A stretch of 64,000 nt of DNA from Patescibacteria group bacterium. GTDB lineage: Bacteria; Patescibacteriota; Minisyncoccia; Moranbacterales; UBA2206. This document shows, in pieces, positions 38,458-41,668 of the stretch. The notes beneath the pieces were generated by a model. It was not told the DNA's origin. It made no database searches and worked only from the letters and a program-made list of their open reading frames with translations. The stretch lies in assembly GCA_022709735.1 (NCBI GenBank), contig JAKLIG010000001.1:20135-84134 (forward strand). The letters are read 5' to 3'. How positions within the stretch are numbered: the stretch's first letter is position 1; each line of letters opens with the position of its first letter. A program made the position numbers and the translations under genes.

Positions 38458-41400
38458 AATCAAGAGCGGTAATACTAATGCGTATGGTGAATGCCTTGAC
38501 TCATATTAGCGATGAAGGGCGTAGCAGTCTGCGATAAGCTTCGGGGAGGTGACGAGCAACCTTTGATCCGGAGATTTCCGAATGGGATAACCCAGCCGTG
38601 CGTGGCACGGAATTTCCAATTTCCAATTTCCAATTTCCAAATTTTTTTGGATTTGTATTTTGTGGTTTGGTGCTTCCGTGTCATGCATGGTTAACATAAA
38701 CTGAATTCATAGGTTTATGTGGCACACCCGGCGAACTGAAACATCTTAGTAGCCGGAGGAAAAGACATCAATTGAGATTCCCCAAGTAGTGGCGAGCGAA
38801 CGGGGAGAAGCCTAAACTTTGGCGCAAGCCAAGGGGTTGCGAGATAATTTTACTCGTTTAATCGGGGTAATTTATATTTATTAACAAAACGTCTCTGGAA
38901 AGAGCGGCCATAGAAAGTGAAAGCCTTGTATGTGAAAATATAATATAATTTACGAAATTACTCTCAAGTAAGGCGGGACCGGTGAAATCCCGTCTGAATC
39001 TGGGGCCACTATAGCTCCAAGGCTAAATATAATATGAGATCGATAGCGAAATAAGTACCGTGAGGGAAAGGTGAAAAGCATCCCGATGAGGGAGATGAAA
39101 TAGTATCTGAAACCATATGCTAACGAAGAGTAGGAGTCCCGACGCAAGTCGGGATGACTGCGTGCTTTTTGTAGAACGATCCAGCGAGTTAGTTCTATGT
39201 CGTTGATTAATCCGCTTTAAGCGGAGGAGTCACAGTGAAAGCGAGCTTGAAAGAGCGAACTTAAATGGCATGGACTAGACCCGAAGCCAGGCGAGCTATT
39301 TATGAGCAGGGTGAATCCCGAGTAAAATCGGGAGGAGGCCCGGACCCACCAGCCGTGCAACACTGGGGGATGACTTGTGAATAGAGGAGAAATTCCAATC
39401 GAGCTTGGCGATAGCTGGTTCTTCCCGAAATAGCTTGAGGGCTAGCGTTGGGAAACTATGTTTTGGAGGTAGAGCTACTGAATGAGAATCCGCGGTTCGC
39501 CGTAGGATTCTCAACCAAACTCCGAATTCCAGAATAACTATCCTGACAGTCAGTACTCCGGGGCTAAGCTCGGAGCACAAAAGGGAAAAAGCCCATGATC
39601 GCAATCTAAGGTCCCAAAATCTATGTTAAGTGGTAAAGGAAGTAAAGCTTCTTATACACCTAGGAGGTTGGCTCAGAAGCAGCCATCCTTTAAAGAGTGC
39701 GTAACAGCTCACTAGTCTAGAGGCTTTGCGCCGAAAATTCAACGGGGCTCAAACATAGTACCGAAGATGCGGGCTCATAAATTTCTCAAAGAAAAAAAAC
39801 TTAATTATGTGAATTTTTAAAATTTCATGTAAGCGCTTGCAAATATAGTAGCGCGTTTAGGTTCTTTGAGAAATTTATGAGCGGTAGGGAAGCGTTCCAT
39901 AAGCGCTGAAGTGGAAGCGTGAGCGACCATGGAGTTTATGGAAGTGAGAATGCTGGAACGAGTAACCGCAATTGGGGTGAGAACCCCCGACACCGAAAGT
40001 CTAAGGTTTCCTGGGCAATGTCAATCATCTCAGGGTTAGTCGAGCCTAAGGCGAGGCCGAAAGGCGTAGTCGATGGACACACGGTTAATATTCCGTGACT
40101 TCAATATTATTCGATGGAGCGACGCATTGCAGTACTTTCTGCGAGTAATTGGATTCTCGTAGGGATGCTAAGAACGCGTGGCAGGAAAATCCGCCATGCA
40201 TCAGTTCAAGGTATTTCTCGAATTTTCCGTTCGCGGAGGAGAAGAGAAAGGAGCGCAGTGCCGGGAAAAACTTCTAAGATTATTAATATTGAAACCGTAC
40301 TAAAACCGACACAGGTAGACTGGGCGAGAAGCCTAAGGTGAACGAGTGAACCTTCGTTAAGGAACTCGGCAAAACAACGTCCGTAACTTAGGGATATGGA
40401 CTGCCCCGACGCAAGTTGGGGCCGCAGCGAAAGATACCAAGCGACTGTTTACCAAAAACACAGGTCTCTGCAAACCCGCAAGGGGAAGTATAGGGGCTGA
40501 CGCCTGACCAGTGCTGGAACGTTAACGAGAGCGGTGCAAGCCAATCTCCGAAGCGCCAGTGAACGTCAGCGATAACTATAATCGTTCTAAGGTAGCGAAA
40601 TTCCTTGACAGGTAAATTCTGTCCCGCATTAAAGGCGTAACGACTTGGTAACTGTCTTAACGAAGAGCTCGGTGAAATTGCAATGACGGTAAAGATGCCG
40701 TCGACCTGCAGCAAGACGAAAAGACCCCGTGGAGCTTTACTACAACTTGGTATTGAATTTGAGATCGTGCTGCCTAGAATAGGTGGGAGGCTTTGAAGTT
40801 CCGACTCTGGTCGGAATGGAGCCAAAAGTGTAATACCACTCTGTATAATTTTAAATTCTAACCCTGGGCTGTTATGAGTCATCAAGACTTATGATTTTGA
40901 GCCGTCAAATATGATAAAGGATTAGATAGAAAAAGTTGTAATTATCGTATTTACGGTTCACAAATTGTAATGTTTTGGTTATTCATATCCAGTCCGGGGA
41001 CAGTGCCTGGTGGGTAGTTTGACTGGGGCGGTCGCCTCCTAAATGGCAACGGAGGCGTTTACAAAGGTTGGCTAGACTCGGATGGAAATCGAGTCGATAG
41101 TGCAAAAGCATAAGCCAGCTTTACTGCAAGACTTATTAGTCGATCAGTCACGAAAGTGGAATTTAGTGAACCGACTGTCGCATGTAGATGCGCAGAAGAT
41201 CATCAGATAAAAGTTACCCCGGGGATAACAGGCTGATCCCTCCCAAGAGTCCATATCGACGGAGGGGTTTGGCACCTCGATGTCGGCTCATCGCATCCTG
41301 GGGGTGAAGAAGCTCCCAAGGGTTTGGCTGTTCGCCAATTAAAGCGGTACGCGAGCTGGGTTCAAACCGTCGTGAGACAGGTTGGTCTCCTATCTGCTGT

Positions 41401-41668
41401 AGGCGTTATTGCTTGAGAGGACTCTTTCCTAGTACGAGAGGACCGGAAAGAACGAACCTCTGGTGTACCAGCTGTTCCGCCAGGAGCACTGCTGGGTAGC
41501 TACGTTCGGACGGGATAACCGCTGAAAGCATATAAGCGGGAAGCCCACCTCAAGATTAGGCAATTTCCGTCGCAAGACGGAACGATTTCCTGGAAGATGA
41601 CCAGGTTGATAGGTCTCAGGTGAAAGCGGAGCGATCCGTTCAGCCAAGAGATACTAATAAATTGAACA
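38458..41668 (+). rRNA. rrl: 23S ribosomal RNA with three expansions/IVS-like insertions (helix 9 about 38611-38676; helix 45 about 39768-39895; domain V about 40870-40990)
   Basis: Conserved 23S blocks: 5' AATCAAGAGCGGTAATACTAATGCGTATGGTGAATGCCTTG, GAACTGAAACATCTTAGTA, GGATGCCTTGGC-type start, peptidyl-transferase region GGGGATAACAGGCTGATC...CTCGATGTCGGCTCATCGCATCCTGGGG, and sarcin-ricin AGTACGAGAGGACCGG. Confidence 0.9.
38611..38676 (+). repeat. TTCCAAT mini-repeat insertion within 23S rRNA helix 9 region
   Basis: aatttccaatttccaatttccaatttccaaatttttttggatttgtattttgtggtttggtgcttc inserted between GCGTGGCACGG and CGTGTCATGCATGG. Can form a G-U rich hairpin. Confidence 0.6.

Follow-up and report, generated by a model that had tools for sequence, protein, structure and literature searches.

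Hairpin inserts at the tips of helices 9, 45 and 79 of the 23S rRNA gene and a 16S-unlinked 23S-5S unit in a Patescibacterium close to Moranbacteria

Introduction

The stretch of DNA analysed here, 64,000 nucleotides long and called the window in what follows, carries a 23S rRNA gene in which three segments stand out from the conserved bacterial core, and no 16S rRNA gene is recognised beside it. Two questions are raised by this locus: what the extra segments are and what becomes of them during ribosome maturation, and whether the 23S and 5S rRNA genes form a transcription unit of their own.

Classical intervening sequences (IVSs) are described at helices 25 and 45 (H25, H45) in Salmonella, Yersinia, Campylobacter, Leptospira and Coxiella and at helix 9 (H9) in Alphaproteobacteria, and they are excised by RNase III without religation; the classical sites include H9 and H45 (PMC4990558). 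In the CPR, the same phylum-level group as the organism studied here, rRNA insertions have been surveyed repeatedly (Brown et al. 2015; Tsurumaki et al. 2022, 2024), and the available text of two surveys gives insertions of at least 100 nt for 77-82% of the 23S genes (PMC9297842, PMC11270868). As far as that text goes, the surveys centre on group I and group II introns and LAGLIDADG endonucleases, and the 100-nt cut-off would miss two of the three inserts described below. The same text already reports short inserts at known IVS sites (23IS2, 23IS4), free of ORFs and different from introns, which were presumed to be IVSs, as well as 23S_rRNA_IVP ORFs in some CPR rRNA insertions. Unlinked rRNA genes are known from Rickettsiales, Deinococcus-Thermus, Helicobacter and Patescibacteria (Brewer et al., bioRxiv 10.1101/705046). 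Insert-rich and unlinked rRNA genes are thus both documented CPR traits, of which the present locus is one more example.

Identity and integrity of the 23S-5S locus

The 23S rRNA gene is full length (38465-41678, + strand, 3214 nt; Rfam RF02541 LSU_rRNA_bacteria, 2519 bits, model positions 1-2925), and the limits given for it by an earlier note, 38458-41668, agree at both ends within about 10 nt. It is followed by a 5S rRNA gene of the short form (41817-41927, + strand, 111 nt; RF00001, 85 bits), bracketed by a 22-nt inverted repeat (41804-41825 / 41918-41939); short 5S genes are described as typical of Parcubacteria-type CPR in the available text of one survey (PMC9297842). The 23S gene is 67% identical to E. 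coli rrlB across aligned columns, 83-89% identical to the closest named sequences (Moraniibacteriota or Patescibacteria metagenome-assembled genomes) and 85-92% identical to those of three syntenic metagenome relatives, L026, L027 and L028, the closest of which is L026 (92.5%). The host is a Patescibacterium (CPR) close to Moranbacteria, and the sequence was traced to the metagenome-assembled genome GCA_035454065.1.

The inserts were delimited with the Rfam covariance model, and E. coli (Ec) positions were obtained by MAFFT alignment (E-INS-i) against rrlB. The model places inserts at H9, H45 and helix 79 (H79), so that the three extra segments described in the earlier note are real and its observation is confirmed. 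The rrlB alignment also suggested a 45-nt "insert" after Ec283; this one was set aside as specific to E. coli, since no more than about 12 extra nt are seen there with the Rfam model. From a practical point of view, inserts of this kind matter for annotation and primer design, as standard pipelines split or truncate such 23S genes.

It could be argued that assembly or binning has produced the inserts artificially, or that the gene is a decaying pseudogene, given that rRNA regions of metagenome-assembled genomes misassemble easily and that the Logan contig of the same organism ends about 120 nt into the 23S gene. However, the full-length, high-scoring Rfam match covers every model position, the inserts are placed exactly at helix apices with pairing preserved, and dozens of independent assemblies contain homologous H79 hairpins together with the same gene order. 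This explanation is consequently considered extremely improbable.

The 16S-unlinked transcription unit

No SSU match was found by Rfam anywhere in the window, which is clear along 38 kb upstream and 22 kb downstream of the 23S gene, and the gene order TPR, MscS-like, 23S-5S, Cys-rich gene, rodA, L25 is conserved in the syntenic relatives, equally without 16S. Both observations bear out the proposal that the operon consists of 23S and 5S alone, the 16S gene being unlinked or distant. The association between 5S and the Cys-rich gene is kept down to 72% 23S identity. TPR and MscS-like genes of the + strand and a terminator-like hairpin are located directly upstream of the rRNA unit, where the protein gene at 37142-37900 (+ strand) has its own terminator-like hairpin at 37924-37955.

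The promoter TTGACA-17-TAGAAT, previously noted at 38005, was found at 38005-38033 (+ strand) as a sequence match of sigma-70 type with a TG extension, agreeing at 11 of 12 positions and being the best of the region. This promoter recurs in L026, and TTGACA / TGCTAT(T/C)AT is found at an equivalent distance in L027 and L028. The leader, of about 430 nt and conserved in relatives, contains two elements in succession. The first one, between the promoter and the second, is a terminator-like hairpin followed by a T-run (38144-38165, + strand), conserved with compensatory changes in the leaders of five relatives; because it separates the predicted promoter from the 23S gene, the real 23S promoter may be further downstream. 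The second one, GAACTTTGACAACT (38246-38259, + strand), is boxA-like and shares the block GAACTTTAACAAYT with all five aligned leaders, a block which we take to resemble the boxA of rrn antitermination (E. coli TGCTCTTTAACAA). A permissive Rfam scan of 570 nt of leader gave chance-level matches only, and the same 570 nt show no notable ORF and an insignificant global fold (z -0.6). The 23S gene is enclosed by a 31-nt inverted repeat, 87% complementary, whose arms (38423-38453 and 41759-41789, both + strand) are separated by 3305 nt and form the 23S processing stem; its 5' block is invariant in L026, L027, L028 and L017.

We infer that transcription would start at the predicted promoter. The reading of the locus as a single-copy, 16S-unlinked 23S-5S transcription unit with its own predicted promoter, taken jointly with the excision of the inserts by RNase III that is discussed below, is judged to be probable, short of being assured. 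Nothing material distinguishes this unit from the unlinked rRNA genes of Brewer et al., to which it adds a further example: 23S-5S, with its own predicted promoter and leader, conserved in the clade. Unlinked genes are recognised by the lack of 16S in the 1.5 kb before the 23S gene and by intervening protein genes, and both are seen here.

The inserts at helices 79, 45 and 9

In domain V, where about 110 extra nt had been noted at 40870-40990, the covariance model delimits an insert of 115 nt (40875-40989; 2 nt in the model) at the tip of H79, after Ec ~2210. It forms an extended hairpin (40862-40999, + strand) whose stem of about 60 bp is almost uninterrupted (dG -60.3, z -9.6; none of 200 shuffles as good). 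BLAST of the window returned no other copy of it. Homologous extensions are present in seven of the eight syntenic relatives whose 23S genes are at least 82.3% identical, and they can be aligned over the full length with 86% identity in L026, 80% in L027 and 74% in L028 and L017 (z 9-27); overall, the full-length alignments range from 58 to 86% (73-86% for the five closest relatives; z 7-27). The base and the proximal part of the extension covary: 89.3% of the cells are paired, 14 of 18 pairs have changes on both sides, and none of 500 shuffles scores as high, while the proximal 7 bp (UAUGAGU / AUUCAUA) are conserved in sequence. The H79 insert is an old extension of the sub-clade, inherited vertically and under structural constraint. 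A literature search for bacterial helix 79 insertions returned nothing relevant.

The H45 insert lies after Ec ~1163-1185, at a classical IVS site. It had been described as about 110 nt at 39768-39895 closed by a perfect 20-bp stem; the hairpin and the site are correct, and the figures have to be amended to an insert of 89 nt (39786-39874) in an extended hairpin at 39773-39882 (+ strand), closed by a perfect stem of 21 bp, GCTCATAAATTTCTCAAAGAA / TTCTTTGAGAAATTTATGAGC. Its fold is again better than all 200 shuffles (z -6.5), and heptad repeats are absent from it. No other copy was returned by BLAST of the window. L019, L022, L037, L012 and L023 lack the insert, and L026, L027 and L028 have a non-homologous element at this site; alignments with the H45 inserts of relatives fail (z 1-4). 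It is a recent hairpin that belongs to this genome alone, and H45 inserts are sporadic among relatives.

At H9, an insert of 84 nt (38602-38685; 5 nt in the model) follows Ec ~132 and is part of an extended hairpin at 38594-38692 (+ strand; dG -45.4, z -7.0, none of 200 shuffles as good). A TTCCAAT repeat insert of about 66 nt had been reported here, of which the insert and the repeat are right, TTCCAAT being a rotation of AATTTCC, and the size is not. The 5' arm carries the tandem heptad AATTTCC in 4.3 copies (38611-38640, + strand; TRF, 100% matches) and is paired to a 3' arm rich in G and U. The base stem consists of GCCGUGCGUGGCACGGAA / UUCCGUGUCAUGCAUGGU, and its 5' arm, when tested, was also found to be self-folding. 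L027 and L037 have the insert, L026 and L028 lack it, and the H9 of L037 has the same base stem. The H9 repeat also matches an array in ligA, with 90.6% identity over 32 nt (18344-18375) and 100% over 17 nt (18407-18423). The H9 insert is composed of a self-complementary base stem specific to rRNA and of tandem AATTTCC heptads of the kind dispersed in the genome.

In summary of the earlier view, which joined IVS or expansion inserts with an unlinked 23S-5S operon, both halves stand, with the qualification that the inserts are of different kinds: H79 is vertical, H45 unique and H9 built of heptads. By the note's own measure, ordinary variable-region lengths for the phylum, the inserts are ordinary in this lineage: hairpin inserts at H9, H25, H45 and H79 are common in patescibacterial relatives. 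At least two classes can be distinguished among the short helix-tip hairpins, the stable one of H79 and the sporadic one of H9, H25 and H45.

The relatives also have inserts of 250-840 nt, at Ec 1917, 1931, 1951, 2593 and 2656, and these larger, intron-sized ones are placed at CPR group I intron sites published in the available text of the surveys (PMC9297842, PMC11270868). Since 45% of the CPR 23S insertions of at least 100 bp are group I introns according to the available text of one of them (PMC11270868), it might be supposed that the inserts studied here are self-splicing group I or II introns as well, removed with religation of the exons. Each of them, however, is a simple hairpin of 84-115 nt, far under the size of a catalytic core, and sits at the apical loop of a helix instead of at a known intron site; within the window, no intron family passed the gathering thresholds of Rfam. 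In agreement with the earlier note, there are no homing-endonuclease ORFs inside the inserts, which are too short for them, and the ORFs overlapping the H9 region are spurious reading frames within rRNA. A catalytic core (about 200 nt or more, often with a LAGLIDADG or GIY-YIG ORF) is thus missing, and the intron reading, with next to no probability left, is effectively refuted.

Excision or retention of the inserts

The mechanism proposed for the inserts starts from long, near-perfect, A/U-rich hairpins of 84-115 nt at the surface helix tips H9, H45 and H79, which are not introns. Each insert would form a double-stranded stem of at least 20 bp in the precursor, RNase III would cut these stems during 50S maturation, without religation, as it does with classical IVSs, the distal hairpin would be degraded, and base-pairing would keep the parts of the 23S rRNA joined. 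If all three inserts were fully excised, pieces of roughly 0.14, 1.1, 1.0 and 0.69 kb would be left. By analogy with characterised IVSs, we infer that RNase III cleavage and fragmentation of the 23S rRNA may take place in this organism.

Several features are shared with classical IVSs. The H9 and H45 inserts are located at apical loops of the H9/25/45 series, are A/U-rich and are distributed sporadically among close relatives, and all three inserts have complementary termini that give an extended stem-loop. By contrast, the site of the H79 insert is not among the classical ones, and this insert is conserved vertically instead of being sporadic, and the elements compared here are known from sequence. 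In Coxiella, the H45 IVS is excised by RNase III, contains an S23p ORF and has strain-variable tandem heptamers at its 5' cleavage site (PMC4990558); here, too, elements of this type go together with a 23S_rRNA_IVP (S23p) gene and tandem heptamers, with the difference that the S23p gene is outside the rRNA. As for the enzyme, at least 90% of 505 CPR genomes have kept rnc (PMC12641178), and genomes with unlinked rRNA genes tend towards fewer RNase III genes (10.1101/705046). The signature motif of RNase III (ERLEFLGD-like) was found neither in the window nor in related loci totalling about 980 kb, a search that says little either way because all of these loci surround rRNA.

Spacers between rRNA genes are by definition removed during maturation. 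The 23S-5S spacer of this locus, which is certainly removed, contains a hairpin of the same heptad style (41683-41754, + strand; (CAACTGA)n in the 5' arm and (GTTGAAA)n in the 3' arm; detected by TRF and as an inverted repeat, z -4.5).

Alternatively, the mature ribosome may keep the hairpins as expansion segments projecting from the 50S subunit at H9, H45 (ES15L) and H79 (ES31L), perhaps as binding platforms or assembly aids. H79 is what we take to be the site of eukaryotic ES31L, and the alternative is most plausible for this insert. The vertical conservation and the covariation of H79, present in seven of eight relatives and alignable along its whole length, are also what a retained expansion segment would be expected to show; inheritance within the lineage with compensatory evolution is seen for H79 alone, not for H9 or H45. 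In archaea and eukaryotes, H45 is capped by ES15L (PMC3553981; bioRxiv 10.1101/2025.08.01.667930), and the present extensions arise from the same helix tips as ES15L and ES31L. Nevertheless, those described here are simple, unbranched, A/U-rich hairpins deduced from the gene, and near-perfect duplexes of 20-60 bp are canonical substrates of RNase III, an enzyme whose gene is near-universal in the CPR (PMC12641178). The sporadic and non-homologous inserts of H9 and H45 in close relatives fit dispensable elements and not functional parts of the ribosome, and the pairing of H79 would be conserved under excision too. Retention is for these reasons regarded as rather unlikely, and excision in the manner of classical IVSs is preferred. 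A retained H79 hairpin would count among the rare expansion segments of bacteria, and its site would be a eukaryote-like one.

Heptad repeats elsewhere in the window

Arrays of the AATTTTC / GAAAATT type are dispersed at 11157-11627, 18345-18423, 19106-19217, 38611-38640, 50236-50287 and 52340-52452. At 11157-11627 (+ strand), inverted repeats of (AATTTTC)n (11157-11201) and (GAAAATT)n (11550-11627) flank a 23S_rRNA_IVP / four-helix-bundle ORF of 118 aa (11197-11553, + strand; PF05635, 56.4 bits with a cut-off of 33.8; TIGR02436, 79.9 bits), which is situated between pilC (T2SSF) and pilin genes. With the Avd protein of DGRs in mind, part of the ORFs of the interval around it were scanned for reverse-transcriptase families, and no match was obtained; tblastn of this S23p protein against all loci gave no homologue. 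An intergenic hairpin, (AATTTTC)n-loop-(GAAAATT)n, lies just upstream of an amidase (gatA-like) gene (19106-19217, + strand), and another one of the same kind at 52340-52452 (+ strand). Inside the NAD-dependent DNA ligase gene (ligA), 4.3 copies of AATTTTC and then 2.4 of TTTCCAA are found in frame (18345-18423, + strand); residues 544-585 of the protein are opposite residues 528-542 only of E. coli LigA (2owo_A), so that about 27 extra residues are present there. The array in a GT4 glycosyltransferase gene (50236-50287) is not clearly an insertion: in solved homologues a normal helix stands opposite it, and the extra residues number only about 4.

Short hairpin repeats are well known in other bacteria: Rickettsia palindromic elements occur in frame in ORFs and also in RNA genes, the Correia elements of Neisseria are substrates of RNase III, and the STRR of cyanobacteria are heptamer repeats. 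The present ones are similar in occupying operon spacers, a stable RNA gene and, in frame, ligA, and their 7-nt tandem unit resembles STRR; they differ from these families in that the units vary between copies and no near-identical copies were recognised, and the likeness is one of repeat sequences.

Two origins may be considered. Multiple dispersed copies with shared sequence, as in MITE, REP or RPE-like mobile elements, are present. On the other hand, the arrays may not derive from the copying of a mobile element and may instead arise in place through a lineage-specific bias to 7-nt replication slippage, at any site able to accommodate additional sequence (helix tips, spacers and the surface loops of proteins); slippage in the opposite arm would compensate and keep the pairing. 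The units differ between arrays (AATTTCC, AAATCCC, GAAATTC, AATGATC, TACGAAT, CAACTGA), each array being internally homogeneous, and period 7 is dominant in about 885 kb of relatives' loci, with 115 arrays compared with 53 of period 14 and at most 30 of any other. Besides, no target-site duplications, fixed termini or transposase were recognised on reading the element sequences in the window, whose non-rRNA copies, also as read from their sequences, are without self-complementary base stems. Against slippage stands the single modular architecture common to rRNA inserts at three helices in different genomes, namely a terminal segment that folds on itself, followed by GGAA, heptads, in many cases AATAAAT, and further heptads, as well as the association of heptads with a 23S_rRNA_IVP gene both here and in Coxiella (PMC4990558). 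Architecture and association point to common descent of an element and not to purely local slippage, which is given an appreciable but minor chance.

A further reading, offered tentatively and regarded as rather unlikely, combines two propositions: that the clade may harbour an undescribed family of heptad-repeat palindromes, ORF-less relatives of the S23p element, and that H79 may separately be a true retained expansion segment at the ES31L site. The elements would colonise rRNA helix tips (H9, H25, H45), rRNA spacers, intergenic regions and, in frame, protein genes, and the rRNA copies would have gained a two-fold-symmetric base stem as an RNase III site. A self-complementary base stem like that of the rRNA copies was not found described in the literature, and the available text of the CPR surveys (PMC9297842, PMC11270868) makes no mention of the heptad-repeat architecture, the non-rRNA copies or the clade-conserved H79 hairpin. 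The sporadic class shares the heptad architecture with the S23p gene and the non-rRNA hairpins of the same genome, and heptads, S23p and RNase III come together in the characterised Coxiella IVS; this offers a testable lead on the origin of bacterial IVSs, an old unresolved question.

As a side observation, the H9 of L018 and the H45 of L062 resemble solo remnants; these two cases are anecdotal.

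The ribosomal RNA unit and its inserts

A complete bacterial 23S rRNA gene of 3214 nt lies on the forward strand at 38465-41678 (Rfam, 2519 bits, all 2925 model positions) and is followed by a 5S rRNA gene of 111 nt at 41817-41927 (Rfam). No small-subunit rRNA was found by Rfam within the 64-kb window, and the tRNAs of the window are all distant from the 23S gene, at window positions 1.6-2.8 kb and 21.6-22 kb. Among these, the tRNA-Pro(GGG) called by ARAGORN at 2758-2831 is absent from the Rfam output at the gathering threshold, and the weak Rfam tRNA at 21833-21901 (32 bits) has no ARAGORN call. 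A stem of 31 nt (87% complementary), which pairs 38423-38453 with 41759-41789, spans the entire 23S gene, and the 5S gene is flanked by a separate 22-nt stem.

The covariance-model alignment that the earlier note had called for delimits three loop inserts: 84 nt in helix 9 (H9; 38602-38685, against 5 nt in the model), 89 nt in helix 45 (H45; 39786-39874) and 115 nt in helix 79 (H79; 40875-40989, against 2 nt in the model). In the alignment to E. coli rrlB they follow E. coli positions (Ec) ~132, ~1163-1185 and ~2210, respectively. Each insert folds with its native helix into a single long hairpin whose stability is far above that of shuffled controls: -45.4 kcal/mol for H9 (z -7.0), -45.2 kcal/mol for H45 (z -6.5, with a perfect closing stem of 21 bp) and -60.3 kcal/mol for H79 (z -9.6). 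The H9 insert contains 4.3 tandem copies of AATTTCC (38611-38640). The proposal of the earlier note, three extra segments in the 23S gene of a 23S-5S unit lacking 16S, is thus borne out by Rfam, the covariance model and the folds; the sizes of the inserts are slightly corrected, and the one placed in domain V can now be named H79.

The alignment to rrlB also reveals a deletion of ~25 nt at Ec 1745-1770 (window ~40440). Together with the 111-nt 5S, it fits the reduced rRNA cores reported for Patescibacteria (CPR), a short 5S being a Parcubacteria-type CPR trait (PMC9297842). An apparent 45-nt insert after Ec 283 was rejected as peculiar to E. coli, since at that point only ~12 nt separate the window from the Rfam consensus.

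Lineage and conserved gene order

The protein that flanks the unit is encoded on contig DAOTEH010000001.1 (326 kb) of the metagenome-assembled genome (MAG) GCA_035454065.1. In a scan of 185,579 species, each represented by one genome, an H79 region of this size class turned up in only 22 contigs. Almost all of them carry the label Patescibacteria, Moranbacteria or Paceibacteria; the few labelled Bdellovibrionales or Bathyarchaeia (loci L006, L012, L023 and L024) have 23S genes 83-89% identical to that of the window and the same flanking genes, and probably reflect misbinning or mislabelling of CPR contigs in public MAGs. The nearest named 23S belongs to a Moraniibacteriota MAG (88.7%). The gene order that recurs in the scan contigs is TPR protein, MscS-like protein, 23S-5S, a Cys-rich protein of 269 aa, RodA, L25 and SLT.

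The 269-aa protein is encoded at 41971-42780; it has a Cys-rich N-terminal motif (NQNExGVDCGG) and matches DUF3426 only below threshold. An alignment of this protein was used to search metagenome contigs, giving a sample independent of rRNA, and 80 loci were returned. 23S sequence is present in 47 of them, with the 23S-5S unit directly upstream of the homologue of the 269-aa protein. In loci with upstream sequence, the protein usually comes right after the 5S in a very broad range of Patescibacteria; a few loci that extend 10 kb upstream have no 23S there. The linkage, which may be meaningful, holds down to 72% identity in 23S and 24-30% in the protein, and the 16S-less 23S-5S unit therefore goes back to the ancestor of a large clade. 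That rRNA genes can be unlinked in Patescibacteria is documented (bioRxiv 10.1101/705046).

Inserts in related 23S genes

Inserts of at least 60 nt were counted in 24 near-complete 23S genes of the rRNA-independent sample, and they occur at H9 in 5 loci, at H25 in 8, at H45 in 9 and at H79 in about 11. The earlier note had allowed that its extra segments might be ordinary for the phylum, and among these genes they are: inserts at the four helices are common in the lineage, and the 23S gene of the window is a modest example. Inserts of 250-1300 nt also occur at several sites, including Ec 1917, 1931, 1951, 2593 and 2656, to which published CPR surveys assign LAGLIDADG-encoding insertions (PMC11270868). 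According to the published surveys, insertions of at least 100 nt are found in 77-82% of CPR 23S genes (PMC9297842, PMC11270868).

The H9, H45 and H79 inserts differ in kind. The H45 insert is a plain hairpin whose similarity to the H45 inserts of relatives is not significant (z 1-4); it is absent in several close relatives (L019, L022, L037, L012 and L023), and the closest one, L026, has a different element at this site. The two close relatives L026 and L028 lack the H9 insert, and their native H9 stems differ in sequence; in L037 (83.5% 23S identity) it is present with a base stem nearly identical to that of the window.

Of the 8 syntenic relatives whose 23S identity is at least 82.3%, 7 have the H79 insert, and most of the more distant ones lack it. 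The insert aligns over its full length with those of L026 (86%), L027 (80%), L028 and L017 (74% each; z 9-27), and its identity follows overall 23S relatedness. The base and proximal extension are conserved as CCCUGGNCUG-U-UAUGAGU / AUUCAUA-CCAGNCCGGG. In 27 sequences, 89.3% of the cells are paired and changes on both sides are seen in 14 of 18 pairs; none of 500 shuffles reached the observed values, and slid-register controls were 32-51% paired. The H79 insert has no tandem repeats and no other copies within the window.

A family of heptad-repeat hairpins

Among relatives' inserts of at least 70 nt, tandem repeats of about seven nucleotides (period 5-9 nt, in almost every case exactly 7) were found in 9/9 at H9, 12/14 at H25, 13/18 at H45 and 6/24 at H79. 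Period 7 also tops the tandem repeats in ~885 kb of relatives' loci, with 115 arrays against 53 of period 14 and at most 30 of any other, and the density is 3.6-fold higher inside the 23S spans.

The rRNA copies follow a modular plan: a self-folding terminal segment, GGAA, heptads (for example AAUUUCC, AAAUCCC or AAUGAUC), often AAUAAAU, and further heptads; the 3' arm is complementary, often through G.U pairs. AAUAAAU occurs in 14 of 30 copies versus none of 24 at H79. Of 29 5' termini, 27 have a dG of -4 or lower and 24 a z of -2 or lower. Since the termini both fold on themselves and pair mutually, as in CCGUGC-AUA-GCACGG with CCGCGC-UGU-GCGCGG, the base duplex is two-fold symmetric. The H9 insert of the window belongs to this family as a short member. 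Short helix tips at H9 of locus L018 and H45 of L062, such as GGCCGUGCAUGGCAUGGUC, look as though only the self-complementary terminal module were left, which suggests that the interior of the element has been deleted there.

Heptad arrays outside the 23S gene

Arrays like those of the rRNA inserts also occur elsewhere in the window. An ORF of 118 aa at 11197-11553 encodes a four-helix-bundle protein of the 23S_rRNA_IVP family (S23p; PF05635 56.4 bits, cut-off 33.8; TIGR02436 79.9 bits) and is bordered by inverted heptad repeats: (AATTTTC)n to its left (11157-11201) and (GAAAATT)n to its right (11550-11627). Within a type IV pilus cluster it sits between the pilC and pilin genes, and is therefore an element of the intervening-sequence (IVS) type outside any rRNA gene. 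No match to a reverse-transcriptase family was obtained among the nearby ORFs scanned, which are part of those in the interval.

Two intergenic hairpins of ~110 nt with the form (AATTTTC)n-loop-(GAAAATT)n, one just upstream of an amidase (gatA-like) gene (19106-19217) and the other following a glycosyltransferase gene (52340-52452), lie between co-oriented genes and are REP-like. In ligA (16694-18829), in-frame arrays at 18345-18423 (AATTTTC x4.3, then TTTCCAA x2.4) fall in the HhH region of the NAD-dependent DNA ligase, where the protein exceeds E. coli LigA by ~27 residues between E. coli positions 527 and 543. The H9 repeat is 90.6% identical to the ligA array over 32 nt. These arrays are reminiscent of Rickettsia palindromic elements, which are found inside ORFs. 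Two GT4 glycosyltransferase ORFs also contain arrays, AAAATTG x7.9 (50236-50287) and AATCAGG x5.3 (51800-51836); the former was rejected as a clear insertion, as the segment aligned with it in solved homologues is a normal helix and only ~4 residues are extra.

Probable fate of the inserts

Helices 9, 25 and 45 are the classical IVS sites (PMC4990558). In Coxiella burnetii, the H45 IVS contains an S23p ORF, and its 5' end has tandem heptamers (GACAGAT) that vary between strains; RNase III excises this IVS, cutting on the 5' side where the first heptamer begins (PMC4990558). At least 90% of CPR genomes keep rnc, the RNase III gene (PMC12641178). In the window, the 23S-5S spacer, which is removed, has a heptad hairpin of the same style as the rRNA inserts (41683-41754; z -4.5). 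This precedent, the retention of rnc, the long processing stem, the spacer hairpin and the sporadic presence of H9 and H45 inserts among relatives make it most likely that RNase III would excise the H9 and H45 hairpins without religation. The H79 duplex of ~60 bp would likewise make a good RNase III substrate; that it is instead retained as an expansion segment is a serious competing reading, and its vertical inheritance, covariation and sequence-conserved proximal stem fit both retention and excision. Given their size, fold and position, and with no Rfam intron match, the inserts are not self-splicing introns; homologous structures in many independent assemblies exclude an assembly artefact.

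The locus falls within known kinds, namely CPR rRNA insertion sequences, classical IVSs and unlinked rRNA genes. In the running text of the accessible papers, no description was found of the modular heptad architecture common to H9, H25 and H45, of its link in one genome with an S23p gene, intergenic hairpins and in-frame ligA arrays, or of the clade-conserved H79 hairpin; the three are leads, not established novelties.

Promoter and leader

The gene directly upstream of the rRNA unit (37142-37900, forward strand) has an MscS-type TM domain and ends with a terminator-like hairpin (37924-37955). Next comes TTGACA-17-TAGAAT with a TG extension (38005-38033), which matches a sigma-70 promoter better than anything else in the region. 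The leader of ~430 nt aligns block by block with those of four relatives and gave no match to Rfam families. The aligned leaders have in common a strong predicted promoter, equivalently spaced, an invariant processing-stem arm and a boxA-like element, GAACTTTGACAACT, at 38246-38259. A terminator-like hairpin with a T-run (38144-38165), downstream of the predicted promoter and upstream of the boxA-like element, is kept with compensatory changes in all five leaders. Upstream of it, the conserved AAAGCGGG (38105-38113) could pair with CCCGC of the hairpin's 5' arm and so provide an attenuator-like alternative structure in the leader.
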